Made by a program: the position numbers and the translations under genes. The notes below the pieces were generated by a model. That model saw only the letters and a program-made list of their open reading frames with translations, was not told the origin of the DNA and searched no databases. From a virus (lineage: Duplodnaviria; Caudoviricetes), in the IMG/VR virus record IMGVR_UViG_3300006029_000082, positions 1-25,311 of that record: DNA of 25,311 bases; one strand, 5' to 3'. This document shows, one piece after another, positions 1 to 24,169 of this stretch (position 1 is its first letter; each line of letters begins with the position of its first letter).

Positions 1-94
1 CCGAGTAATCTTGAGCAGGAAAAATGGGTTTGTAAGTAGGCTTAGAATTAATAATATTTTGACGTGTTGTTCTCCACGCGTCTAGCAATCCCAT
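1..94 (-). CDS. 5' end of a gene downstream of portal (runs off window), N-terminus MGLLDAWRTTRQNIINSKPTYKPIFPAQDYS
   Basis: Translated by hand; ATG overlaps the portal stop (TAATG), AGAGGG upstream, frame open to the window edge; not in the ORF track. Confidence 0.75.
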   Translation of the reverse strand, partial: MGLLDAWRTTRQNIINSKPTYKPIFPAQDYS

Positions 95-2265
95 TACTCT
101 ACCCTCTTATCATTTTCAATTGATTGATGTTCCAGCCTCTCTCTCGCCAAACTCGCCTCGACTTCAAGTTTTGCACTACCGCTTTCAGCATCAGCGGCGA
201 TTTGTGCGGCTGTTTGTTCCATATCCGCAGAAATCTTCTCTCTTTCAATCGCAAGTTTTTGCTCCAGTTCCATAACTTTCAATTGCATTTCTTGCTGTTT
301 AATTTCCATATCAGCCTGTAACTCTTGCATCTTTTCACTATGGTCAATCTGCATTTCTTCGCGTTTTATAATTAGCTTATCGTTTTCGATTTTCATCTGC
401 GACTGCATAAACATTTCATTTGCGTCTGGTTTTGGTGGCGGTATGTCAGACCCGTCTGGGGCTGGTTGTGTAAAATATTTCTCTGCTTCAACCCCGCCTT
501 CTTTAACTAAGTCAACGAGTGCAGAATAAACATTTTGACGCGATACAATTGACCCACTGTCAAAACCCATATTTGCCGCAAGTTCCTTCTGGGCATTGAG
601 GACATTTGTTAAAGCCGACACGCGCATTTCGTCGTTGCCATGACCAAGACCAACCATAACCGTGACGTCGTATTCCGTATTCCAATTCCGTGGATCCATT
701 GGCACCCATTGATTATTTAATCGGATTACGCGCTCTTGGTTTTGATGCATTGAAACGCATTTCAATATTTTTTTGAATAAATCTTTTACGCCACCATCAG
801 CAAATAACCGACCAATCATTTCGATACGCTGTTGCGACATATTGAGCATTAATTTTACGCCCGTCGCAGTTTGGTTTGGATTTAAAGAATCCTGATCAAG
901 TCCCTGAGAATGTTTTGTGACGCCAGTGCGAACTTCTTTTATTTGATCTGCATATTCTAACGCCGATAATACATCTCCGCCTACCGGAGCGGCTGTCATT
1001 TCTCTGACCATGCCTGGCTGTTTGACGCGTACAATTCCTCCAGGGCGACTATTCAATAAGTCGTCCATATTACACATACCTTCAACCACTTCAGTCCGGT
1101 GGTTATTCTGTAAGTATATGTTGTCGAGTAAATTACGTAGTAAACTTGTTTTTACATCTTGGATCATAAAAGTTTGATCTGCTATCGACATACCAAAAAA
1201 TCGGTGTGGCATTGGTATTGGAACAATTGTCGAAAATGGTGGCTCTTCAACTTCTTCTTCATCTAAGATTAGATAACTGCCGGAACCACCAGCTAAGACG
1301 CGTATCCACTCCGCGATGCCGTCGCCGTTGCGGTCAGCTTTTAAATAACAATCATAAAGCCAAATCTCACGACGTGTTGGGTCATACGAATCTTCGCCTG
1401 TATGACTGCCACCAAAATCAGCGTCGTCAATTTGCTCTCGCAATAATTTTTCAGTTGTAAAATCTTCTTCATCGAGTGTCGGTATTTGATCGACTAAACT
1501 TTGCTTATATCCGAGGGCAATTAAATCTGAGGCGGTGTAACGAGTTCGACTGGCGACAAAATTAGCTTCATCGAGAGTGCGCGCTTTCCGCTCTATGTAA
1601 AAATCTTCCGGTGCAACTGTCTCGACGACGCAACGTCCTTTTGTTTTTGTACGACGAATTTTTACTGAGTGTCCACTCGAATAAGAAGGTGTTGAAGCGG
1701 GAGCCACATCGCCGTCGAATAACCCCAGTTCGGCGGACATTTGCTCCTCATAGGAATGCTCAACCGCCTCAACCTCTGGATCAGCTAAAAGAAGTGTTAC
1801 TTCTTCCATGCTCAAATTTTCATACGTCTCAGTCGTGACGTCTTTTTTATTTTCGTAATAAGTTTTAAAAATGCCAATGCCTGATAGCAAAGCATCTTTG
1901 AACCCTTCGTGCAGTAGTTGCACTCCAGGGTTATCTTTTAAAAATATATGATTTACATATTTGGTTGCTTGCTCGGCACTTGCCTCGTCTTCAGGGCCGA
2001 CAGGCGCAAACTTTACAACTTCGCCGGAGCCCGTGAAGGGTTTTAACAAACTTGGAAGCATTGATTCAACCGTATCCATAACATCAGACGATATTACAGC
2101 CGAGCGACCCTCAACTTCATTACCCATTGGATACGACAAATAATATTCCAAAGCCTTTTCACGTCGACGCTGTAACTCGCCACCGTGATACCCAGCACTT
2201 GTGCGAATACCTTCGGCGATCAGTGACTTCAGTGTTTCTTTGGTAACCTTTTTACGTTTAGCCAT
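94..2265 (-). CDS. Phage portal protein with long C-terminal coiled coil
   Basis: 723 aa; GNEVEGRSAVISSDVMDTVE, PMPHRFFGMSIAD, RNLLDNIY, TATGV motifs typical of podovirus-type portals; located downstream of terL. Confidence 0.9.
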   Translation of the reverse strand: MAKRKKVTKETLKSLIAEGIRTSAGYHGGELQRRREKALEYYLSYPMGNEVEGRSAVISSDVMDTVESMLPSLLKPFTGSGEVVKFAPVGPEDEASAEQATKYVNHIFLKDNPGVQLLHEGFKDALLSGIGIFKTYYENKKDVTTETYENLSMEEVTLLLADPEVEAVEHSYEEQMSAELGLFDGDVAPASTPSYSSGHSVKIRRTKTKGRCVVETVAPEDFYIERKARTLDEANFVASRTRYTASDLIALGYKQSLVDQIPTLDEEDFTTEKLLREQIDDADFGGSHTGEDSYDPTRREIWLYDCYLKADRNGDGIAEWIRVLAGGSGSYLILDEEEVEEPPFSTIVPIPMPHRFFGMSIADQTFMIQDVKTSLLRNLLDNIYLQNNHRTEVVEGMCNMDDLLNSRPGGIVRVKQPGMVREMTAAPVGGDVLSALEYADQIKEVRTGVTKHSQGLDQDSLNPNQTATGVKLMLNMSQQRIEMIGRLFADGGVKDLFKKILKCVSMHQNQERVIRLNNQWVPMDPRNWNTEYDVTVMVGLGHGNDEMRVSALTNVLNAQKELAANMGFDSGSIVSRQNVYSALVDLVKEGGVEAEKYFTQPAPDGSDIPPPKPDANEMFMQSQMKIENDKLIIKREEMQIDHSEKMQELQADMEIKQQEMQLKVMELEQKLAIEREKISADMEQTAAQIAADAESGSAKLEVEASLARERLEHQSIENDKRVE

Positions 2266-2490
2266 TTAACCTACTAACTGAGCCGCCGCTTTTGCCGCTT
2301 CTTTTGAGTAAGGGCCGTGATCGACAATATTTCCGTCATTGTCAGCCAACGCCCACTTTCCGAAATGTAAATGTTTAGGGGTTAATACTCCTACCACGCT
2401 TGAAGCATCTTTTTTTTCATCTAGACGCCTTTCAAGCGCGTCTACTCTTTTCAATAATTCTTGGTAGGCAACTTCTAATCTAATTGACAT
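2266..2490 (-). CDS. Small hypothetical protein (74 aa)
   Basis: AAGGA RBS, abuts the portal start, short N-terminal coiled coil. Confidence 0.7.
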   Translation of the reverse strand: MSIRLEVAYQELLKRVDALERRLDEKKDASSVVGVLTPKHLHFGKWALADNDGNIVDHGPYSKEAAKAAAQLVG

Positions 2491-2504
2491 TTGGGGGTTC
2501 CTTT

Positions 2505-4049
2505 TTAGTTAAATTCGTCGTCTGGCATCATCGCGTTTGCACCTAATAATCCGACGGCTCCGTAAATAGGTATTTTACTTTTAATTATGCCTTCAGTTAA
2601 AACTTGTTTTGGGGTTAAACCTGTCACCCGTGATGTTCTTTCGATTGCTTGATTAACTTCTTCAATCATTGGACGTGAGCCAGGATACCTTGCACCCTCT
2701 CTCGCTTTTTTTGCCCCTGCCCAAGCAACTTCTTGAAATTCTCTTGGAGAAATTCCATGTTTTTTTGCTAAATTAATAACAACTTCTTCATACGCGCCAT
2801 AACTGTCACCTTGAGGCATTTGTAACTTCGGATCGAAAAGTTGGCTCATTTGTTTATCAACTGTCGCGCTAGATTTGTCTCCAAGGAAATTATTTTGGAA
2901 ATTGAATCGTTTTGGGTCTGCTGTATCAATGCCCTTGTCGGCAAATTTTTTATACATATTGATATTGCCAGCGATATACTGCCCACCCGCTGGGAACGGC
3001 ATATCGTAAGCATTTTCCGGGTATGGAATATTATTTTCTTTCAAAAAATTACCATACATCGCTGTTCGTAAATTTTCTTTAGGAGCCGCTCCGCCAGTCG
3101 TCGCCGCCATTGGTTGTGCAAATTTTTCTTTGAACGCTTTACGCCCTGCATCTGGGCCTAACTCTTTTATAAACGCCTCTTCTAACTGCCTCATGTAATA
3201 CCAGTTATTAGAATTTTTTATTTTCGTGCCTTCTTTAAAAGCATCTTCTAATCGAGCAATCCCGTCTGGGTGTTGCGCCCTTAAACGAGCAGTTGCTCTT
3301 GTCTCAGGTTTTTTTGCCCAAGAATCTTTTTGAGTGCTTGAGCCGATCTTATAAGGTTTAGGATTAACATCCGATCTTTTACTAACATCGAACATTGGAG
3401 TGTAGTTACCCGCGTCAATATCTTTTTGAGCTTTGGTAACTTGTTTCGATATAGCAAGTGCTTCTGGAGAATTTTGTTTTGATGGAAATACAAGCGTTGC
3501 CGGATACTCTTCACCAGCTTCTACTTTTTCATCCCAACGATATTGTTTATCAGCCGAAGTTCCCAGTTTTTTCTTCGCCAACTCTTTTTGAGTTTGTTTA
3601 AAAACAGGTGGCACAACTGGTGGGTATGTTGGTAGCGGTTGTGGTACACTGTCAGTATTTGACAAGACAGGAACGCCACTAGAGGCGGGTTGCGGCTCTC
3701 CACTACCAGCTTTTACATTACCAGTTTTTGCATCCCCTAACAATCCTTTTTTTACACCTTCTTTTATACCAGCGACTGTTCCTGGCACTGGTATCATTGC
3801 AATACCCGCACCCGCCATGCCTAACTTTGCAAGCGCATCTAAATAATCACCGCGACCAAATGCTTCACCGGATGCGCGGCTGTCGTTGACTATTCCTTTT
3901 ATGTCAGCCTGTGGGCCGACTATATCTGCGCCACCTAATAAGCCAGTTTTCATTTGTTGATATGTCGGCACATTTAACCCAAGGCGTCGACCAACATCAA
4001 TAGGATCAGGGATACGATAATCGTATAATTTATCTAATAAACCCGCCAT
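2505..4049 (-). CDS. MAGLLD-leader protein with C-terminal HhH-GPD/DNA-glycosylase-like domain
   Basis: GAGGA RBS; motifs NWYY, MAATT..P.EN, PKRFNFQNNFLGD..ATVD, Y..LAKKHGISPREFQEVAW recall a phage HhH-fold family; Gly/Ala-rich hydrophobic N-terminal region and Pro-rich linker. Confidence 0.55.
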   Translation of the reverse strand: MAGLLDKLYDYRIPDPIDVGRRLGLNVPTYQQMKTGLLGGADIVGPQADIKGIVNDSRASGEAFGRGDYLDALAKLGMAGAGIAMIPVPGTVAGIKEGVKKGLLGDAKTGNVKAGSGEPQPASSGVPVLSNTDSVPQPLPTYPPVVPPVFKQTQKELAKKKLGTSADKQYRWDEKVEAGEEYPATLVFPSKQNSPEALAISKQVTKAQKDIDAGNYTPMFDVSKRSDVNPKPYKIGSSTQKDSWAKKPETRATARLRAQHPDGIARLEDAFKEGTKIKNSNNWYYMRQLEEAFIKELGPDAGRKAFKEKFAQPMAATTGGAAPKENLRTAMYGNFLKENNIPYPENAYDMPFPAGGQYIAGNINMYKKFADKGIDTADPKRFNFQNNFLGDKSSATVDKQMSQLFDPKLQMPQGDSYGAYEEVVINLAKKHGISPREFQEVAWAGAKKAREGARYPGSRPMIEEVNQAIERTSRVTGLTPKQVLTEGIIKSKIPIYGAVGLLGANAMMPDDEFN

Positions 4050-4059
4050 GTGATCCTCA

Positions 4060-5214
4060 TTATATAAATGGTACGCCAGAGTTTATTTCTTGCTGGTACT
4101 TATTTTTATTTCTTTGTAATACTTTCACACGATCCAACACGTCTTGATCCCAAGTGACATAATTGCGAGTAGCGTTTGGTTGCGTTCCAATACGGCTCTG
4201 CTCATCCAAGAAACGAGTGCCAGGAATACCCACGCTTTTTAAAAATTCTGAAGCCTTCTCTGGGCTTCCGTGAATATCTATTAGTTTTCTATAAATTTCC
4301 GCTCCACTTGCGGCATCTCCAGAGTTTTTTATTTCAAACATAGACGCATCATTTCCAAATGATTTTAATAAATTATCAGCCTCTTCTTGAGTTGCAAATT
4401 TTTGAGATACTGGTTCTTTTTGCCCTTTAGGATAAACTCTAAAATTAGGTTCCATAATTCCGCTGAGAGCTTGTTTAATAAAATTAGGTTGTGCGCTTAA
4501 CGGTGCGTCCCAATCTAAATACTTCGCAATATCTTCGTCTGGGATGTCTAATTTGTAAAGTTGAGATTTTGTAGGAATTTTCCCTAATTCGTCCGCTACA
4601 CGGTTTGCCGTGCTTTTCATTGATTCGTCATAATCGGCAGTATTGTAACGCTTGCGAAGTTCACTAGGAGTTTCATGCATCATCGCATTTTCCCAAACCT
4701 CCATTGCCTCATAATCTTCACTTCTTTCGGCTTGCTTATATTTTTGCATCATGATTTCTTCGGCATCGTAATCTCTTGGCGAATACTGTTTTGCAACATT
4801 AGGTTTTTCCGCACTATAAAAACCATGACCATAAGCCTGATTTCCCTCACCTGACCCTATCTTATCCAAGCGAGGCCGTCCCTGTGGATACCCTGGCTCG
4901 GGTTTCCATTTGTTGGGGCCGCCATGATACAGGTTCATTCCCACAGTCGATGAGGGTCGGGCTGGAGATAATAAGCTCGGTAAACTAATCGTACCAGCCG
5001 CATCAAAGACACTTTTAAAAGCGGGGTGAGTTACTGGTGCATTAGCTGGCAGTCTCATTGCCGTGCCTAAATTATCAAAACTTTTTGCCGCATCGATCAG
5101 CAGACCTGGGTAAGTCATTTGACCCCGTCCCGTTTTATCATAGCCGAAGGGATAAAAACTTCCCCTACTCACTATATTTGGGTCAGGTGCCATTAAATCT
5201 AATAAACCCGCCAT
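4060..5214 (-). CDS. MAGLLD-leader protein with ADP-ribosyltransferase-like (polyvalent-protein ART type) domain
   Basis: LYHGG..KIGSGEGNQAYGHGFYSAE..VAKQY..LYKLDIP..LDWDAPL..GIPGTRFLD..NYVTWD, a pattern recurrent in phage large polyvalent proteins. Confidence 0.65.
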   Translation of the reverse strand: MAGLLDLMAPDPNIVSRGSFYPFGYDKTGRGQMTYPGLLIDAAKSFDNLGTAMRLPANAPVTHPAFKSVFDAAGTISLPSLLSPARPSSTVGMNLYHGGPNKWKPEPGYPQGRPRLDKIGSGEGNQAYGHGFYSAEKPNVAKQYSPRDYDAEEIMMQKYKQAERSEDYEAMEVWENAMMHETPSELRKRYNTADYDESMKSTANRVADELGKIPTKSQLYKLDIPDEDIAKYLDWDAPLSAQPNFIKQALSGIMEPNFRVYPKGQKEPVSQKFATQEEADNLLKSFGNDASMFEIKNSGDAASGAEIYRKLIDIHGSPEKASEFLKSVGIPGTRFLDEQSRIGTQPNATRNYVTWDQDVLDRVKVLQRNKNKYQQEINSGVPFI

Positions 5215-5232
5215 AAAAACACCCTTAAAATA

Positions 5233-5285
5233 ATATCAACAAATATGATATTCGCTATTGACTAATTGTGACAAGTCACTATTAT
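5233..5285 (+). promoter_or_regulatory. Sigma70-type promoter with two operator-like palindromes
   Basis: ATATCA-N7-TGATAT 5233-5251; TTGACT 5258-5263, 16-bp spacer containing GTGACAAGTCAC (5268-5279), TATTAT 5280-5285. Confidence 0.75.
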
Positions 5286-5319
5286 ACTCCTATAAACGAA
5301 ATACTTAGGAGAAGACAAA

Positions 5320-5802
5320 ATGATTACGAGATACAAAATTGAAGAAACAACTACAGTTCCAAGCAACCCAAACGATGAGGCTACAATTTACGTTTCAGAA
5401 CTTTTTAATTCTGTAAAAGAAGCGCAAGCATTTATTGATAAACGAAATGTCCTTCACGCAGAAATCGTTCGTGAATATAAAATAATTGATGTTGTTTGTG
5501 GTTACGCAAATAACAGTGGTTACAGCGACATTCACCCATACGAAATTGTTAAAGTTATTTCTGATAAAACAATAGAAATCAGAGAAATGGACGCTGAAGA
5601 ATTACCTTGGAAGCGTGATTTTCACGAAGGTGGTTTTTTCGGACATACAGCAAATCAAGACAAACAAAAATGGGATATTAAACCCAACGCAAAAAAACAA
5701 CCGATAAAAGCACAATTAAAAAAAGATGGCTACTTTCACTCAAATGTTGGGAAACATTACATCGAAGCAGAGCCTCGCAGATTTTACGATTACAATTTTT
5801 AA
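5320..5802 (+). CDS. Phage hypothetical protein (160 aa)
   Basis: AGGAG RBS; YSDIHPYEIVKV..GGF.GH..NQ..Q.W..PRRFYDYNF pattern familiar from phage accessory genes. Confidence 0.8.
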   Translation: MITRYKIEETTTVPSNPNDEATIYVSELFNSVKEAQAFIDKRNVLHAEIVREYKIIDVVCGYANNSGYSDIHPYEIVKVISDKTIEIREMDAEELPWKRDFHEGGFFGHTANQDKQKWDIKPNAKKQPIKAQLKKDGYFHSNVGKHYIEAEPRRFYDYNF

Positions 5803-5864: not shown

Positions 5865-6218
5865 ATGACCTCACCAACAGAACTCAAAATGACCTTACCA
5901 ACAGAAATGATGGACGCTTGCCCTTTTGATAATATTTTTGTTTGTTCTGATATTGATGAACAAACAAATGAAAAAATCTGGTTAATTAAAATTCCATTGA
6001 TGAGGGGGTCAGATTGCCTCACTGTAAATAAAAAATTTACATCACGTTTTAGCGCAGAAATTTGGGGTGCCAAAAATTTAACTGTTCAAGCACTTGTAAA
6101 TTTTGTTCTTGAATCAAATGATTTTCAAGAACGAATTTTTAACTGTTGGCCCCCTTTTGAAGACGATCGTGGGATTGATTTAGACGTTTTGCTTTGTTCC
6201 TCCAGAATAGACACTTAA
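5865..6218 (+). CDS. Hypothetical protein (117 aa)
   Basis: TAGGAG RBS; follows the previous gene after a hairpin. Confidence 0.75.
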   Translation: MTSPTELKMTLPTEMMDACPFDNIFVCSDIDEQTNEKIWLIKIPLMRGSDCLTVNKKFTSRFSAEIWGAKNLTVQALVNFVLESNDFQERIFNCWPPFEDDRGIDLDVLLCSSRIDT

Positions 6219-6262: not shown

Positions 6263-6369
6263 ATAATTTTAACCTTACATCTTTTACAAACTAAGACCCT
6301 GTCCTCAGTGTCAGGGTCAAATTTATGCCACATAAAATAACAATAAATACTGCAACAAAAATTAGACAA
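6244..6369 (-). CDS. Possible small Cys/His zinc-binding protein (41 aa)
   Basis: TTG start overlapping the terL end; IYCYFMWHKF..LVCKRCK (C-x4-H..C-x2-C); start uncertain. Confidence 0.35.
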   Translation of the reverse strand: MSNFCCSIYCYFMWHKFDPDTEDRVLVCKRCKVKIINPPIE

Positions 6370-7681
6370 ATTGGTTACTGTTTGGGTAATCCAATTTAGA
6401 CTTCCACGGCTTACGATATGCACCGAACGACGCCATGCCTTCACGGTATCCGACACAAAGATAACGCATCGCATCGGCAAAATGCGAGTTATCGTCATGT
6501 AGCGGTAAACCAGACGTCTCTTTAACGCGATAATTTTTTAATGCCTTCAACAAGTCATGGCAATGAGTAGAGCTAATCCAAACACGAGGTAATAAAGCGC
6601 GTACCGCCTCAATCCCTTCGGCAACTTTTCGCATAGGGACAATGGTAGGATTGATACCAAGTTGACGGAGTATGTCAGAGCGGCGTTGTGCAGTTGCTCC
6701 AAGTATTCTGGTATCCGTGTCGTGAGGAAATAAATGATCGCCATAACTATACCCTTTATCAAATGCTCGTTGCTGTAATACCTGGACGTAGTGTGCTAGA
6801 CCCTCACCGGATGCCTGATAATCGTCAACGATCCTTATCTGTGATCCAGACGTCTCTTGCCAAAATATAACCGTTGTCTTATCTCGGACACCTAAATCCC
6901 AGCTTGTGTTTACAAGTAAATTTTCGTCGTGTGGTACGTTTCCAATGCGCTCTTCATGCTCGGCCTTTGCGAGTTGCTCGGCGTAGTACGCGCCCGTGAT
7001 TGAGGCCGTCCAGTCGCACTCCATTTCCTGACGATATATATTGTCGGATAACTGCTCTTTCAGTTCGTCGAGTTCTTCCTGCGGCAGTACATTCGTCTTA
7101 CTGGCTGGAAATAAACAGGCAAACCACTTTGAGTTTCCGGCGTCCATTTCGGCCTTTGCTTGGTCGTAGATGGCCTTAAATGCGTCGTCGCCCTTTGGCG
7201 TCCCTATCCATAAAACTTTGCCCTGGCGGTCTGCAATAGCTGGCCTGACAATAGACGGAAACACCTTTGCGCTGATGTCTGCATACTCATCAAAAATTAC
7301 GGCGTCTAAAAATAAGCCTCGGATTTGTTCCGACGAATCATTAGAGCCTGATAGTAGATGTATTGTTATACGCCCAGTCGGGTGGGGTATTTCGACCCTG
7401 AGTTTAGCGGCGTTATATTTAACCCCTGGGAACATCTCTGTAGCGTCCTTCACGTACTGAAATGCGACCTTCTCAGCCTGACTAAAGGTTGGTGCTATAT
7501 AAGCCCCCTGCGGGTTTTTGTGGACGCATTCAAACAGCGATCTAACGAGCCAGTGTATCGCCATATACGTCTTGCCAAAACGACGATGCATCACGCAGAC
7601 ATTATAGCGTGTGGAGTTGTCGTGGAATTTCTTTTGTAGCGGCCTCGGTGTATATGGGACGATTATTTTTTTAGGGGGCAT
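6362..7681 (-). CDS. terL: Terminase large subunit
   Basis: Walker A HRRFGKT, Walker B AVIFDE, coupling motif IGTP, nuclease SWDLG and SHFADAMRY. Confidence 0.95.
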   Translation of the reverse strand: MPPKKIIVPYTPRPLQKKFHDNSTRYNVCVMHRRFGKTYMAIHWLVRSLFECVHKNPQGAYIAPTFSQAEKVAFQYVKDATEMFPGVKYNAAKLRVEIPHPTGRITIHLLSGSNDSSEQIRGLFLDAVIFDEYADISAKVFPSIVRPAIADRQGKVLWIGTPKGDDAFKAIYDQAKAEMDAGNSKWFACLFPASKTNVLPQEELDELKEQLSDNIYRQEMECDWTASITGAYYAEQLAKAEHEERIGNVPHDENLLVNTSWDLGVRDKTTVIFWQETSGSQIRIVDDYQASGEGLAHYVQVLQQRAFDKGYSYGDHLFPHDTDTRILGATAQRRSDILRQLGINPTIVPMRKVAEGIEAVRALLPRVWISSTHCHDLLKALKNYRVKETSGLPLHDDNSHFADAMRYLCVGYREGMASFGAYRKPWKSKLDYPNSNQFV

Positions 7682-8039: not shown

Positions 8040-8501
8040 TTAATTGAGCTTGGATTTCCCTGATTTCGCGCGCGAAACTTGCGTTTGACGTCCGTCAAAT
8101 GCGGGTTCATTTGCCACGCTCTCACTATCATCAGCCCAAGCAATTGTGTAACTTCCTATCGTACCTTTGACTTCGACTGATTGTTTACTTTCAGCTTTTA
8201 ATACTGGTATTAACTTCTCAGCTTTCCATCGATAATGATTTAACATCTTGTCAGCCTTAATCACTTCGTCGCGTGTTGTTGCTACTCGGATCAACGTCTC
8301 GCTCTCTTGTAGCAACGTCTCAACATTCTGTATCAATGCTTGCTTGTAATCTTCAGCGAGTTCTTTATCAGCTTGCCGCCATCGCCAGAAATTACTTTGA
8401 TCTGGGAAACCATCGCGACCATTACAAATGTCTTTTAGAAATTCTCCGTCACCAAACCTAAGTAAGATTTGCTTGCAGATTTCCGCATTTTTCTTAGCCA
8501 A
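8040..8501 (-). CDS. terS: Terminase small subunit (Sf6-like HTH N-terminus)
   Basis: ICKQILLRFGDGEFLKDIC..FPDQSNFWRW..Y..A, RWKAEKL; start probably TTG 8501 (GGAG 6 nt upstream) rather than ATG 8513. Confidence 0.85.
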   Translation of the reverse strand: MAKKNAEICKQILLRFGDGEFLKDICNGRDGFPDQSNFWRWRQADKELAEDYKQALIQNVETLLQESETLIRVATTRDEVIKADKMLNHYRWKAEKLIPVLKAESKQSVEVKGTIGSYTIAWADDSESVANEPAFDGRQTQVSRAKSGKSKLN

Positions 8502-8513
8502 CGTAATCTCCAT

Positions 8514-14004: not shown

Positions 14005-15345
14005 TCAATCCAAACACATACAATCGACAATTTCATCATTGTCTGTGAAGAAATCACCTTGGTTAATAGTCATGTTTAGTAAATCTTTGTATGGCGGTCG
14101 GTCTTTATCAAAAGTTGCGTTGATTAAATTTTCTTGTTTAATCCACCAATTCGCCAAATTTGGCCTATCTCGCATAATACCTTGAAGTAATTTTTTACCC
14201 TTTAAAAAACATAAGTCACAATTCCCAAGCGGAGTTCTGCCATTGACGCCATCTAAAGCTAAATCAAAAGGTTGCTCATTCCAAAATTTTGCAACGTCTC
14301 TAGCAGTAATGTCCGCGTGAACAAGCGGCATAACATTGACGCCCCAATTATTTGTTTTAGTAGAATTTTTTTCAAACCGACGTGGCTCATCGGCTCGGAT
14401 GCCAATAACATTTGCCCACTTTTCAAACCCATGAATCGTCCTCATTAATCCTGTTAATGGATAGATTTTTAATTCCGACGTGCAAAATCTTGCTAGGGCA
14501 TTTGGAAGGTAGTTTTTTTTCTTTATTAATTTAGAAAACGGTTCGCCGTCTCTTGACGCTGAATTATGGCTAACAATATTAAATCCAACATTAATTAATG
14601 GAGCCTCTTTAATTTTTGGTTCTTTGCAAATAAAAATAGGAGCAGTACGACCATTTTCTATTGCTAAACTACCAAACCGCTGATCAACTAATTTTGTTAA
14701 CTTATCAACATCGGCAACTTTCCCTACCCAAGATTTTTTTCTTGGCTCTTTTGGTAAGTTAAATATTGCAGTTTTTTTTGTGCATCCAGCAATTTGATCT
14801 AAGGTTAAATTTAATCCTTCATCGTCTTCCATAGTATTAATGACGTTAGACGCGTAAACGATGTCATATTTTCTATGCAAAGCGTCAAATTTATGAGAAT
14901 TATTGCTAAAGTTTGCGCCAAAATCAAAACCAATTACATTAAACCCCTGGCTCAACAAAACCTCTACATGGTTAGACTTTGGCCCAGACCCAAAATCTAA
15001 TATAGTATCTGACTTTTCCGCTATTTCAGCGACACGGCGAGGAACTATTGCATTTTTACCAATTGCCCCAGAACATCCACTTCTTGACGTGCGGTTAGTA
15101 ACTTTTATAAAAGGTGCAGTTTCATCCCATTCAACCCAAGTTATAGGAACATTCCAGCGCGTTTGACATTGTTGAACAAAATCTAACGTCTCAGGTAACT
15201 CCTTGCCAGTGTTCGCAAACGCGACCACAACTCCATCTGGTAATTTCCCGTCATATGCATTTAATATCGACCACAACATAAAAGCACTTGTTCTACCTCC
15301 AGAAAAACTGATTAAAGCTGGTGTTGGAATTTTATAAGGATTCAT
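14005..15345 (-). CDS. PAPS-reductase/DndC-like PP-loop protein with inserted SAM methyltransferase domain
   Basis: SFSGGRTS, FANTGKE, RFCTSELK, GIRADE..R, GNCDLCFLK, C-terminal CMC; insert has ILDFGSG and YDIVYASNVIN; start ATG 15345 behind GGGGAAG. Confidence 0.85.
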   Translation of the reverse strand: MNPYKIPTPALISFSGGRTSAFMLWSILNAYDGKLPDGVVVAFANTGKELPETLDFVQQCQTRWNVPITWVEWDETAPFIKVTNRTSRSGCSGAIGKNAIVPRRVAEIAEKSDTILDFGSGPKSNHVEVLLSQGFNVIGFDFGANFSNNSHKFDALHRKYDIVYASNVINTMEDDEGLNLTLDQIAGCTKKTAIFNLPKEPRKKSWVGKVADVDKLTKLVDQRFGSLAIENGRTAPIFICKEPKIKEAPLINVGFNIVSHNSASRDGEPFSKLIKKKNYLPNALARFCTSELKIYPLTGLMRTIHGFEKWANVIGIRADEPRRFEKNSTKTNNWGVNVMPLVHADITARDVAKFWNEQPFDLALDGVNGRTPLGNCDLCFLKGKKLLQGIMRDRPNLANWWIKQENLINATFDKDRPPYKDLLNMTINQGDFFTDNDEIVDCMCLD

Positions 15346-15790
15346 TATCTCTTCCCCACTGTGCAATTAAAACGGCCTCAGCCCTGCCGTCATCTTTGGC
15401 GCGTTTAAAGTCATCTGCATTTTTTGGAAATAATCGTGTTGCGAGTTGTCGGCTTGCTGACTTGTCCCGACCCAATGAAAAATGTCTTTTCCATTTTGAT
15501 GGTGTCACTAAACTGTACGGAATTTCTAAAGTTGCTAATACACCTTTGATAACCCCGTAGCCCTGCCCAAAATTAAAGGCCGACTGCTTGCCCATGCCGA
15601 AAGAATTTATGGATTCTATATATGTGTGTCTTGGTGTGAACTCTTTAAATAAATTTGCTAACGCAACGGCGTTTAATTCTTTATCGAATACGGGCATATC
15701 GTGAACTTCGACAAACGTATGCTTTTCTTTCACCCCGCTATAATAAAAACAGAGCGCGCCAGTCTTGCCTGGATCGATGCCGCAGATCAA
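15332..15790 (-). CDS. ruvC: RuvC-like Holliday junction resolvase
   Basis: GIDPG, YIE, SAFNFGQGYG, P.KWK, DDGRAEAVLIA. Confidence 0.85.
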   Translation of the reverse strand: MICGIDPGKTGALCFYYSGVKEKHTFVEVHDMPVFDKELNAVALANLFKEFTPRHTYIESINSFGMGKQSAFNFGQGYGVIKGVLATLEIPYSLVTPSKWKRHFSLGRDKSASRQLATRLFPKNADDFKRAKDDGRAEAVLIAQWGRDNESL

Positions 15791-16832: not shown

Positions 16833-17201
16833 ATGAACAATCAAAATTTAAATATCAATTTACTTGATGCTACACATAAAGACGAGTATAACCCATTTGA
16901 GGTTTTTTACTACGAAACACACGAGGAAGAAATTTTGGCTGAAACAAGACGACCAATCGAGTTTGTCCAGGCAAGTGGTGAGCGGCTAAAAAAAGTAAGA
17001 CAGGCGTTAGGTCTTACTCAAGTCGAGTTATGTGAAAAACTTGACGTAAAACAGAATGCCTATAGTGCTTGGGAAAATGGGAAACTTTTAATGGATCCAT
17101 TTGTCGCCAGTATTTTATCTACAAAATTTGGTGTTACCCTGGACTATATCTATAACGGTGTCGAAAAAGATTTGCCGGAAGAAATACGCAAAAAGATATA
17201 G
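16833..17201 (+). CDS. XRE-family HTH repressor
   Basis: GERLKKVRQALGLTQVELCEKLDV..YSAWENG..FGVTLDYIY.G; no S24 peptidase domain. Confidence 0.85.
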   Translation: MNNQNLNINLLDATHKDEYNPFEVFYYETHEEEILAETRRPIEFVQASGERLKKVRQALGLTQVELCEKLDVKQNAYSAWENGKLLMDPFVASILSTKFGVTLDYIYNGVEKDLPEEIRKKI

Positions 17202-18893: not shown

Positions 18894-19129
18894 ACGCGAA
18901 TCAACTCGCTGTAACAGCAAAACAGGCATTTGAACTTGTCGGCTGTAAAAATGAGCGGCAATTTCGGAATGAAGTTAAAAAGGGAATCTGGCCCAAACCT
19001 GCGATAACGAGGTCGCGTCCTATGCGTTGGAGCGTGTCGGAACTTCAACAAAGGTTGAAAAAAGAATCAAACCGCGCCACGATTGAAGATCACAAAAACG
19101 ATCTTGATGAAATGCTGGGATTAATTTAA
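18890..19129 (+). CDS. xis: Excisionase/AlpA-like protein
   Basis: GTG start overlapping the MTase stop; ..VKKGIWPKP..RW; coupled to integrase by TAATG. Confidence 0.7.
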   Translation: MNANQLAVTAKQAFELVGCKNERQFRNEVKKGIWPKPAITRSRPMRWSVSELQQRLKKESNRATIEDHKNDLDEMLGLI

Positions 19130-20358
19130 TGAAAAAAATTAGACATTTAATTTCGAAAAAAGACCACGGTTTTTATTGGCAGATCACGCCAGCTATGAAA
19201 AAGGCTGGCTTTAGAGCGCAAAATTTAGGCAAGGATAAAATTGCCGCCGAGATTAAAGCAGAAGAATTGAATTGCGAATGGGACAAATATAAACAAGCGG
19301 GTGAGCCACTTGAGCAAATGACCAACCGTGACTTCAACTCGTTGATACATCGATTTCAAAAAAACCCCACTTTTTATGGTGAACTATCTGGGGTGTATAA
19401 AGACGAATTAGATCGTGAATTTAAACTTATTGGCGACAAAATTGGAGCGGCAAAAGTTCACGCCTTACGAAGAAAACACGTCCGCACAATTTACGACGAC
19501 ATGAGTAATGCTGTCAGTATTAAAAAGGCAAATAAAAATTTTAAAGCGATACACCGCCTTCTTGCTTTTGCCGTTGAAATTGGCTGGGCTGATTTTAATG
19601 TTGCGACAGGCATGGAAAAAATATCGATAAAAGGTCGCTACCAAAAATATGAGCCGGATGAAATTAACTTATTAATGCGCGTTGCTTTAAATCGATACTT
19701 AGATTGCCGTGGCCCGTTGAATTGTTTGGCGGGTAGTACAATAAGAACCACGTCGCGTCGTTCACTTGCTATTGCAATTTCGATTGCTTATGACACCTCG
19801 CTCCCAAGGCAAGATATTTTAGCCCTAAAGTATTCCGATTTTGACGGTAAAGGATTTTCTCTACGTCAGTTAAAAAAACGCGGCGATAGAAATTTATATT
19901 TACCCGTAACACCAAGAACAATGGCCCTAGTATCACAGGGCGACGTCGTGCAACTAAAATCAGATCAACATATTTGCATTAACGAGGAAACTGGCAAACC
20001 CTGGGAACTTAAATTATTTTCAAAAGCATTTTTAAAATTGTCACGTCGCGCCGGATTACGATCTCAAAAAAATCAGCGGGAACAAGAAAAAGACGCTAGA
20101 ACTTTTCACGACATCCGCCGGACGGCTATGACCGAGATGGGCGACAACCAAGCAACCAATGTTGAGATAGCCGCGTTTTCTGGACACGCGCCAAACAGCA
20201 CGGCCTTAAATGATTATGTAAAGCCTGGGAAAAAAGCCGCCGTTAATGCTCTTAATAAAAGATTTAGCGACGAATCACAAAACGTGATATCCGACGAAAA
20301 TTCCGAAAAACCATCTGCGACAGTAACAACTCTCCACAAAACTTCAGACCACTCCTAA
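19129..20358 (+). CDS. int: Tyrosine integrase
   Basis: YDTSLPRQDIL, FHDIRRT, SGH, DY; adjacent to attP. Confidence 0.9.
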   Translation: MKKIRHLISKKDHGFYWQITPAMKKAGFRAQNLGKDKIAAEIKAEELNCEWDKYKQAGEPLEQMTNRDFNSLIHRFQKNPTFYGELSGVYKDELDREFKLIGDKIGAAKVHALRRKHVRTIYDDMSNAVSIKKANKNFKAIHRLLAFAVEIGWADFNVATGMEKISIKGRYQKYEPDEINLLMRVALNRYLDCRGPLNCLAGSTIRTTSRRSLAIAISIAYDTSLPRQDILALKYSDFDGKGFSLRQLKKRGDRNLYLPVTPRTMALVSQGDVVQLKSDQHICINEETGKPWELKLFSKAFLKLSRRAGLRSQKNQREQEKDARTFHDIRRTAMTEMGDNQATNVEIAAFSGHAPNSTALNDYVKPGKKAAVNALNKRFSDESQNVISDENSEKPSATVTTLHKTSDHS

Positions 20359-21875: not shown

Positions 21876-22322
21876 TTAACTCCTTAAAAATAATAAGCGT
21901 TCTGACTCTCTCCGTAAAACTAATCCACGAAGCCGTTTTCCCGATGCACGATTCCACCTGATCATCTCATTAATACAACCAGTGTAATCAAATCGATTTA
22001 ACTTTAATCTTGCCGTACTTCGTTGCCACGACCCGCTCCCTAAATTATATATCCAGGAGCAAATTGCACTAAACTGATTTTCTGATAATGGGACTTTTAC
22101 CATACGGTGAATTGCCTTTTCCGCACTTTGCAGATCACGCTTTAAAAGTTTTTCTGCGTCTTCTCGACTAATGGGATTTTCATTCCCCGTTAATCTTTTA
22201 CCATCAAAGCCCCTGGTACTTCCAAATCCATATGTTTTTCGATGTCCACTACATATATATATATCAGAGCGAAAGCCCTCGTAAGTTTTCACCAAATCTA
22301 ACCCAGCCTGATTAATCTTCAT
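21876..22322 (-). CDS. Endolysin, GH24 lysozyme
   Basis: YEGFRSDIYICSGHRKTYGFG (E-x8-C-x5-T), NQFSAI, YNLG, GLVLRRESE. Confidence 0.92.
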   Translation of the reverse strand: MKINQAGLDLVKTYEGFRSDIYICSGHRKTYGFGSTRGFDGKRLTGNENPISREDAEKLLKRDLQSAEKAIHRMVKVPLSENQFSAICSWIYNLGSGSWQRSTARLKLNRFDYTGCINEMIRWNRASGKRLRGLVLRRESERLLFLRS

Positions 22323-23068: not shown

Positions 23069-24169
23069 TCAAATAATCATTTCGGGGGTTACATAATTTG
23101 ATGCGACTTGACCAAATTTTTTATGGTAGGTTGTAGATTCTGCTTTTCGTTCTGAAAAATAAGATAGCCTTTTAGAATAAGCATCTTTACTTGCCAGTGT
23201 TCGATGCTGAGTTACTGTCATTCCCATATCTTCTTTGACCTGGGCGTGATGAAGGTGACCGCAATGAGCGTATCGATATTTTGTCTTACCCCAAATTTCT
23301 GGGAATGTTGCCGCAAACACTGAAGTCAAAGTAGAAAACTTTTTTAAATGACCGTGGTGAAAAGCAAGCATTGTATCGCCGTGATGGTGGACGTAGTAAG
23401 GAAGGTCGCTTGTATCAATTGTCACCCTGGGGTTATCTTCATACAAGGCGTCAAACATATGGCGCAACCAAATCGACGACGTAATGTCGTGGTTGCCCTC
23501 CGCCATAATAACGTGGACGTTTTCATGTTTAGTAAGTGACGCGTCTACAACTCGTCGTAATAACTTTATTGACGATGCAATAATATTATTAGGCTCACCA
23601 TCGCTATTTAGTTGGTGTCCGGATAAAGGTGTTTCACTTCTCAATCCAGGGTAATCAGAATGCAAAAAATCGCCAAGCTGACAGATAATCGCCGTGTGTG
23701 CTTTCGGCGAATTGTTTATCATTTCCGAAAAACAATTTATTAAAACATCTTCCGCCGTTTTATTGTCCCAGTCATCACCGAGCATCCCCAAATGGAAATC
23801 TGTTAAGGTATACAAATTTAATAAATCTGGTAGCGATTGTGCTGGGCAATTAATTGGTTTTAATCGTGGCAAATTTTCTGACATTGCCAAAACGCCATCA
23901 CGAAAAATTTGCTCTTGTTTTTCTTTGTCGGCTGTAGTTTTTACCCAGGTTAATTTTACTTCACCTTCAGCATCGTAGAGCGTGCTTTCACCTAAAATTT
24001 TTAAACTAGCGTTTGGAGAATTGAGACTGGAACCAATTCTACTTTCAATTGACCGACGTCGAGAAAACACACTTCGGACACTTGTTTCTAAAATTTTACT
24101 TAGCTCAGTTGCTCCGTGTTTTTGAAATAGTTTAATAAACTCATCATCTGAACATTTTGCTAGGGCCAT
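23069..24169 (-). CDS. Calcineurin-like metallophosphoesterase with N-terminal HTH
   Basis: TDFHLG, LGDFLH, EGNHD, HHGH, GHLHH. Confidence 0.85.
   Translation of the reverse strand: MALAKCSDDEFIKLFQKHGATELSKILETSVRSVFSRRRSIESRIGSSLNSPNASLKILGESTLYDAEGEVKLTWVKTTADKEKQEQIFRDGVLAMSENLPRLKPINCPAQSLPDLLNLYTLTDFHLGMLGDDWDNKTAEDVLINCFSEMINNSPKAHTAIICQLGDFLHSDYPGLRSETPLSGHQLNSDGEPNNIIASSIKLLRRVVDASLTKHENVHVIMAEGNHDITSSIWLRHMFDALYEDNPRVTIDTSDLPYYVHHHGDTMLAFHHGHLKKFSTLTSVFAATFPEIWGKTKYRYAHCGHLHHAQVKEDMGMTVTQHRTLASKDAYSKRLSYFSERKAESTTYHKKFGQVASNYVTPEMII

Follow-up and report, generated by a model that had tools for sequence, protein, structure and literature searches.

Polyvalent proteins, which are encoded among portal and terminase genes, have been predicted to be packaged in phage heads and injected into host cells (PMC5512222, Iyer et al. 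2017), and PMC9503650 likewise predicts head packaging from such gene contexts. In phage P22, loading of the ejection proteins requires the scaffold and not the portal (PMC8402733); in phage Pa223, one ejection protein surrounds the portal (10.1101/2025.06.11.659172); and in phage P1, Dar proteins are anchored on the inner capsid (PMC12810830). No packaging signal is named in the available text of PMC8954989. How podophages without a head protease select their internal proteins is an open question, and in P22 no more than the need for the scaffold is known. Here we describe a head operon on a single 25.3-kb contig of an uncultured aquatic short-tailed phage (IMG/VR record IMGVR_UViG_3300006029_000082, positions 1 to 25,311; from here on, the whole stretch is referred to as the window), in which three genes begin with MAGLLD or MGLLD. 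We refer to their products as cargo 1, cargo 2, and cargo 3, to genes at these variable positions as slot genes, and to related contigs by L numbers.

Results

The head operon harbors a polymorphic slot with GLLD leaders

Pfam and PHROG scans of the window proteins revealed a minus-strand head operon that includes terS, terL, the slot genes, and an SU10-type portal gene (94..2265; PF23899, E = 2.7e-204). The first-pass annotation had reported a common leader on three otherwise unrelated proteins, and all three leaders were found where it placed them. Cargo 1 (4060..5214, minus strand, 384 aa) and cargo 2 (2505..4049, minus strand, 514 aa) begin with MAGLLD (5197..5214, where a short helix is predicted over residues 2-8, and 4032..4049, respectively), and cargo 3, which had been outside the open reading frame track and of which the window holds the start (1..94, minus strand, overlapping the portal stop), begins with MGLLD and is complete as a 348-aa protein in L001, L003, and L346. 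GLL recurs internally at residues 36, 102, and 500 of cargo 2 and residue 37 of cargo 1. The leaders are real, but those of cargo 1 and 2 are not independent at the DNA level, as they share 18 identical bases, whereas leader 3 and the GLLD of the scaffold (see below) are encoded by other codons. The naive chance of three GLLD starts in ~40 genes is ~1e-9, for a motif picked post hoc. The residue following GLL is Asp in 30/35 protein-start cases versus Gly in 31/96 internal cases, so the motif may have two uses; the internal GLL of cargo proteins lie in Gly/Ala-rich surroundings and are concentrated at both protein ends.

Nine distinct close loci have the terL-portal interval in view (the window, L005, L007, L013-L016, L020, and L025). 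Eight of the nine contain one to three genes of at least 250 aa between terL and portal, and L015 contains none. As anticipated by the first-pass annotation, M(A)GLL-like starts are enriched here: GLL lies within 25 residues of the start in 16/16 genes of at least 250 aa located between terL and portal in relatives with an SU10-type portal. The anticipated C-terminal variability is seen in L005, the portal of which is 99.6% identical to that of the window. Its cargo 2 is 84% identical over residues 1-126 and then continues into an unrelated domain (to which family and further searches assigned no identity), its cargo 1 has inserts that differ from those of the window, and its cargo 3 is extended at the C terminus by a further domain of ~110 aa. 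Further, a contig of a 2024 seawater run that carries no flag as a potential source matches positions 3622-4170 and 4816-5301 of the window, with different letters in between. Distant pelagiphage-like relatives mostly show terL, portal, and scaffold without slot genes, so the cargo is optional. We conclude that SU10/LUZ24-type podophages have a polymorphic slot in their head operon and that these genes make it up.

A slot homolog is found in virions

Most loci with context place homologs of both enzyme domains (described below) next to genes for head, nozzle, or ejection proteins, and these loci represent at least four portal types. In Sulfitobacter phage phiGT1, which has an SU10-type portal (31% identity, E = 6e-92), gp5 occupies the portal-scaffold slot, ahead of a small gene and the scaffold gene, matches the cargo-1 profile (E = 2e-51), and starts with MAGMFD. 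Mass spectrometry detected gp5 in phiGT1 virions with 12 spectra and a spectral count over molecular weight (SC/MW) of 0.29, the values for portal and scaffold being 0.67 and 0.059, respectively (PMC10386132, Table S3). We take this detection as modest support for packaging and consider it probable that the slot proteins are packaged polymorphic cargo.

Cargo 1 and cargo 2 have predicted enzyme folds behind conserved N-terminal modules

The N-terminal parts of cargo 1 and 2 had been described as Gly/Ala/Pro-rich, but they are not merely so; each contains a conserved module. N-terminal domain 1 (NTD1; residues 10-78 of cargo 1, 4981..5187, minus strand) is an undescribed module fused to many polyvalent-type domains, and NTD2 (residues 41-100 of cargo 2, 3750..3929, minus strand) is helical and hydrophobic and common to unrelated cargo in SU10-type phages. 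Each sits on several different C-terminal domains. NTD1 matches 947 cluster representatives, and the best 150 of these 947 matches were followed up: 37 have the ADP-ribosyltransferase (ART) domain of the window, 1 has the glycosylase, and 140 C-terminal parts fall into 26 groups. When 101 other NTD1 proteins were scanned, 40 gave a Pfam match (chiefly ART-PolyVal, 19; LPD23, 14; PcfJ, 3; zincin, 2; lysozyme, 2; PBECR1, 1; ParB-like, 1; GNAT, 1). NTD1 occurs with four head types, and GLL is found upstream of it in 50/141 NTD1 proteins. As the first-pass annotation had noted, a MuF domain is not evident: no Pfam MuF match at E ≤ 0.1 was obtained for cargo 1, cargo 2, or the slot proteins scanned. 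NTD1 and NTD2 would anchor polymorphic phage effectors independently of MuF. None of the three window cargo proteins is named by Pfam, PHROGs, or NCBIfam, the only match being phrog_873 (E = 8.5e-5 over 68 residues), and PDB sequence searches with both cargo profiles and the scaffold returned nothing significant.

The enzyme-like character ascribed to both C-terminal domains is supported by structure models. In the cargo 1 model (mean predicted local distance difference test score (pLDDT) 79.7; ~70-90 in the NTD1 part), residues 90-371 (4102..4947, minus strand), which include a variable insert, match H-Y-type ART folds in structure comparison. The diphtheria-toxin catalytic domain ties as best match with residues 1418-1604 of chain B of the cyanophage A4 pre-ejectosome, 9k3a (Z 8.3, root mean square deviation (rmsd) 4.8, 153 aligned, Foldseek E = 5.9e-3), a chain that, judged by its numbering, appears to be A4 gp27. 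The term "ribosyl" is absent from the main text of the A4 structure paper (PMC12002296), and the ART-like fold in the A4 ejectosome, apparently unnoticed, is a concrete new target. In the ART alignment, H97 and Y133 are present in 87/87 members and Asn-351 in 86/87. The third ART position, acidic in the H-Y-D clade, is likely Asn-351 here, as placed by motif and not by superposition, so roles as a transferase, an NADase, or a binding-only domain are all possible for the modeled fold. Cargo 1 has no Pfam match to ART-PolyVal (PF18760, the H-Y-D clade), to which 2/87 alignment members match weakly. The ART domain of cargo 1 is also found within proteins of 1000-5000 aa.

For cargo 2 (model pLDDT 80.6), the best structural match of residues ~236-461 (2667..3344, minus strand) is Thermotoga Ogg, 3n0u (Z 9.5, rmsd 3.7, 179 aligned), and most of the next-ranking matches are likewise helix-hairpin-helix (HhH) glycosylases. 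K380 and D398 are present in 85/85 aligned homologs, separated by 18 residues as in the spacing rule of HhH glycosylases; model and alignment together thus show the HhH fold with the conserved Lys and Asp expected of this class. We therefore predict an HhH DNA-glycosylase fold for cargo 2, which may have base-excision activity. Cargo 2 has no Pfam match to DUF7178 (PF23802) and resembles it in other comparisons (Atlas feature score 0.96 and template modeling score 0.80 against a cluster with DUF7178 in 18% of its members). Some glycosylase homologs are fused to a T7-gp16-like N terminus (phrog_342), and no cargo-2 relatives were found among annotated phages. We note that one shared ~350-aa domain replaces the glycosylase in slot 2 of L005:6958-8544, L357:719-2308, and L020:3742-5295. 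In L201, L202, L210, L227-L229, L239, and L247, which have another head type, the third ejection protein is the one that carries the glycosylase domain as a fusion, and a GL[DP]-like motif lies close to the start of the second. Residues 51-80 of cargo 2 also match the helix-turn-helix of the P22 scaffold (8i1v_H; Z 3.3, rmsd 1.0, 30 residues), a match that we set aside as too generic.

Cargo 3 does not appear to be a third enzyme cassette: Pfam, PHROG, and NCBIfam searches gave no match and no enzyme-like domain. It is a low-complexity protein with a hydrophobic stretch, in which conservation across 12 sequences is limited to the first ~23 residues; at portal identities of 56-100%, the start M[GS][LI]LD of the post-portal gene is kept while the remainder diverges. 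NTD1 and NTD2 are both missing from cargo 3 and from several slot genes that nevertheless carry GLL, as cargo 3 does. The optional ~110-aa C-terminal domain of cargo 3 (L004:2303-3631, L005:11180-12595, and L007:10189-11655) starts with VIC, has a GY..WA.P motif, and is without a family match.

GLL occurs on the scaffold and ejection proteins and varies with head type

We assigned the scaffold to phrog_3927 on a 98% identical L005 copy. GLL lies within the first 40 residues in 67/98 members of the scaffold cluster, fragments and near-duplicates included, and the scaffold of the window clade reads ALEGLLDF, that is, it contains GLLD. The first ejection protein (phrog_4287, gp7/gp14-like) ends with GLGALGGLL, and the second (gp20/gp15-like) has paired N-proximal GLL in the window clade. 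The presence of GLLD on the phage's own scaffold and of GLL on its ejection proteins is a new observation. By eye, the scaffold N-terminal helix resembles its own C-terminal helix. Scaffolds of several head types appear to have one short helix repeated at both ends (L005:12838-13893, L230, L363:6344-7282, and L362:5741-6733), which suggests two docking helices per scaffold; the repeated helices are DAAxAIxxLL-like, RxAIEAA-like, or, in phiGT1, FD-like.

The following head-type counts were made after removal of similar leaders and with a crude gene caller; the cargo and slot-gene sets overlap, some starts are mis-called, and relatedness is ignored. GLL is present within the first 40 residues in 15/31 SU10-head cargo proteins versus 2/38 for three other head types (0/21, 2/13, and 0/4), and in 18/34 slot genes versus 0/44 for other heads. 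Among 283 other gene clusters, 21 have GLL, 14 of which, by eye, are scaffold, ejection, or further slot genes; by the same sorting, ordinary genes have GLL in ~7/269 cases. The leader also differs with head type in the sister pairs L266/L111 and L124/L129. Motif discovery on scaffolds only, with a local background, yielded AAxxI[ES]GLL[ND], and SU10-head cargo received higher scores with this motif than phrog_9953-head cargo did (p = 5e-6 to 4e-5, likewise with relatedness ignored and with the crude gene caller). An RxAAL- or DAL-like helix is frequent at the start of cargo from phrog_9953-type heads (7/21 versus 1/31, for a pattern chosen post hoc; L122, L147, L151, L158, L164, L192, and others), and the second ejection proteins start similarly.

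Other genes of the locus

Family searches assigned an Sf6-like terminase small subunit (terS; 8040..8513, minus strand) upstream of terL (6362..7681, minus strand), which forms the upstream border of the variable slot. Between cargo 2 and portal lies a gene for a 74-aa pre-portal protein (2266..2490, minus strand), found clade-wide and without a family match or GLL. Contig L346 contains the same genes, followed by cargo 3, an 87-aa pre-scaffold protein (L346:13242-13505, present throughout SU10/LUZ24-type phages), the scaffold, and an SU10-type capsid protein; the 74-aa and 87-aa proteins are candidate receptors or adaptors for the GLL tag. The late operon is interrupted between terL and cargo 1 by two small plus-strand genes (5320-5802 and 5865-6218), and the first is swapped for another gene in L005. 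A PAPS-reductase-like protein (14005-15366, minus strand) carries an inserted methyltransferase domain; we speculate that it could be a DNA-modification enzyme shielding phage DNA from the phage's own glycosylase. The window further contains a tyrosine integrase (19129-20358, plus strand), a helix-turn-helix-like repressor candidate (16833-17201, plus strand), a lysozyme (21876-22322, minus strand), and a metallophosphoesterase (23069-24169, minus strand), and the phage is therefore likely temperate. A promoter and terminator scan gave results at chance level, and no portal relatives were found in the genome_contigs dataset.

Discussion

The explanation that accounts best for these results, to which we assign a probability of about 0.5, is that the slot products are packed in the head and co-ejected, with the GLL[DN] leader as a copy of the scaffold N-terminal helix. 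The slot genes would be expressed late, together with the portal gene, and their products packed into the procapsid, where the leader, as a short copy of that helix, would dock at the same internal site, binding the inner face of the capsid or the network of scaffold proteins while the procapsid assembles; several GLL copies per protein would add avidity. Cargo would stay behind once the scaffold departs and would later exit together with the ejection proteins, and NTD1 and NTD2 could add a second step, oligomerization or membrane passage. Once delivered, the enzymes would immediately target host proteins, NAD+, or DNA, in the manner of T4 Alt and polyvalent proteins. Because the motif is common to the scaffold, ejection proteins, and optional enzymes, a short helix docking on an internal assembly site is the simplest account. 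The capsid protein, the scaffold core, the 87-aa protein, and the portal are candidate receptors, and the occurrence of GLL on scaffold and on ejection proteins suggests a site linked to the scaffold or capsid instead of the portal. We rate a loading role for GLL, plausible as it is, at slightly less than even odds.

Several results weigh against this explanation. First, the reciprocal test failed, as the phrog_9953-type scaffold motif did not single out its own cargo (p = 0.25-0.6), and when motifs were sought on scaffolds against a global background, the search settled on acidic low-complexity stretches and lent no support. Second, leaders matched their own scaffold only slightly better than the scaffolds of other phages (mean percentile 0.58, n = 26, p = 0.09), and tree-independent pairs, from which five rows with cut or mis-called starts were omitted, were too few (ART, 3.1 same versus 0.1 opposite, p = 0.25; glycosylase, 0.6 versus 0). 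Third, GLL occurs within the first 6 residues in only 5/120 and 34/120 homologs of the two enzyme domains, and within the first 40 residues in 20/120 and 51/120; 16/31 SU10-head cargo proteins are likewise without it over the first 40 residues. Fourth, the bases common to leaders 1 and 2 indicate that copying accounts for part of the pattern. Finally, GLL and NTD1 are both absent from phiGT1 gp5, the sole homolog for which there are virion data, and two non-structural phiGT1 proteins were also detected in the virions, at SC/MW of 0.18 and 0.15 (PMC10386132, Table S3). The first-pass annotation had proposed that the GLLD genes encode interchangeable packaged enzymes, with which the leader enrichment, the C-terminal swapping, the enzyme folds, and the slot homolog in virions agree; its further claim, that GLLD serves as the tag for loading or ejection, is weakened by the homologs of the same enzyme domains, most of which lack it, and by the larger N-terminal domains, which could do the loading.

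Loading by these domains is the alternative that survives best, and we regard it as unlikely. Cargo would still be packaged, but by the folded NTD1 and NTD2 in a MuF-like manner, with GLL as an accessory or an inherited low-complexity motif. This would suit a module such as NTD1, which folds in the model, spans four head types, is fused to many domains, and has GLL upstream in a minority of cases. On the other hand, GLL occurs without either module in cargo 3 and in several slot genes, a domain common to unrelated heads would be a poor capsid-specific binder while the leader varies with head type in the sister pairs, and the GLLD of the scaffold would be left unexplained.

Less likely still, GLL could be a motif for membrane insertion or ejection that cargo and ejection proteins have in common, and it would then aid envelope crossing and have no role in loading. 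The GLL at the end of phrog_4287, the paired N-proximal GLL of the second ejection protein, and the Gly/Ala-rich internal GLL at the cargo ends would fit such a function, as would Pa223 gp56, which ends with GGLLF and has transmembrane helices assigned (10.1101/2025.06.11.659172). The closest match to the leader (GLLD/GLLN), however, is on the scaffold, which in P22 exits before infection (PMC8402733), and the Asp that usually follows a start GLL, against Gly at a third of internal ones, may point to two uses of the motif.

We consider it improbable that the slot genes are late morons acting in the producing cell, their common start reflecting recombinational reuse of one 5' cassette with no function at the protein level. 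The DNA identity of leaders 1 and 2, the longer common starts of tandem slot genes in L013/L014, and the many relatives without slot genes are in keeping with this reading. It does not account for the different GLLD codons of leader 3 and the scaffold or for the retention of the leader alone in cargo 3, and homologous domains lie within or are fused to ejection proteins, and phiGT1 gp5 is in virions. Finally, GLL as a protease cut site in head maturation, by analogy with T4, where the capsid-targeting tag is removed by the head protease, would fit a motif that recurs at protein starts, internally, and close to protein ends but is highly improbable, as cleavage at residue 3-5 would take off almost nothing and no head-protease family matched between terL and adaptor among the families scanned in the window clade.

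Extending the scaffold-helix reading, and with clearly less assurance than for the loading role of GLL, we tentatively propose that SU10/LUZ24-type podophages use a scaffold-mimicry code, in which a 4-6 residue copy of the docking helix would load ejection proteins and enzymes alike. Each head type would have its own tag, RxAAL-like with phrog_9953 heads and FDF-like in phiGT1. If such a code exists, injected cargo could be read from sequence, including an undescribed family of virion-delivered DNA glycosylases, and podophage heads could be loaded by design. A tag on the scaffold, ejection proteins, and optional enzymes makes cargo selection testable by a few point mutants, and, if the tag is real, it provides a sequence rule for proteins injected at time zero, where anti-defense activities are expected. 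A packaged HhH glycosylase is itself a concrete new target.

How does the window system compare with those described? NTD1 proteins share with polyvalent proteins a domain repertoire (ART-PolyVal, LPD23, zincin, and PBECR1) in a virion-gene context. Polyvalent proteins are defined by at least two disparate effector domains, whereas the window proteins have one enzyme fold each, although some relatives combine domains; they are small, comprise one or two domains, are encoded in tandem in the slot, and each combine a short leader with an N-terminal module not described before. The text of PMC5512222, as available, mentions neither a leader nor a glycosylase. The portal-adjacent conserved N terminus and variable C-terminal enzyme of MuF toxins (PMC5512222 and PMC9503650) are also found in the window system, which differs in lacking a MuF domain and in having at least two N-terminal modules plus a common tag. 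Nor was an adjacent small gene seen to vary with the cargo, as a MuF immunity gene would: cargo 2 directly follows cargo 1, and the 74-aa gene after cargo 2 is unchanged where the C-terminal domain of cargo 2 is swapped.

In T4, a short N-terminal peptide is enough to load IPIII fusions (PMC8402733), to which the GLLD leader may be likened, and Alt is a packaged and injected ART (PMC5512222), of the R-S-E type where the predicted window fold is H-Y-type. T4 is a myovirus, whereas the window phage is a podovirus with no head-protease family among the head genes scanned. Closer in body plan, P22 gp7, gp16, and gp20 show scaffold-dependent loading via their N-terminal parts, Pa223 has the same portal-small gene-scaffold-capsid order as the window clade, and a cyanophage A4 pre-ejectosome chain matches the ART-like fold of cargo 1. 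The ejection proteins of these three phages form an essential conduit and have no described common tag, whereas the window slot genes are optional and exchangeable. Encapsulin cargo-loading peptides, which are short, Gly/Leu-rich, and mostly C-terminal, load enzymes into a non-viral HK97-fold shell; their likeness to the GLLD leader is an analogy only. Dar proteins of P1 resemble the proposed cargo, by description only, as internal anti-defense proteins on the inner capsid surface that are co-ejected, and differ in being a fixed set loaded sequentially through DarA-Hdf (PMC12810830). Literature searches, with most subscription journals and bioRxiv supplements outside their reach, found no description of the motif or the system. 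Overall, we conclude that the system is real and non-random and that it appears to work like MuF, polyvalent, or T4 internal-protein cargo, yet appears to fall outside all three groups.

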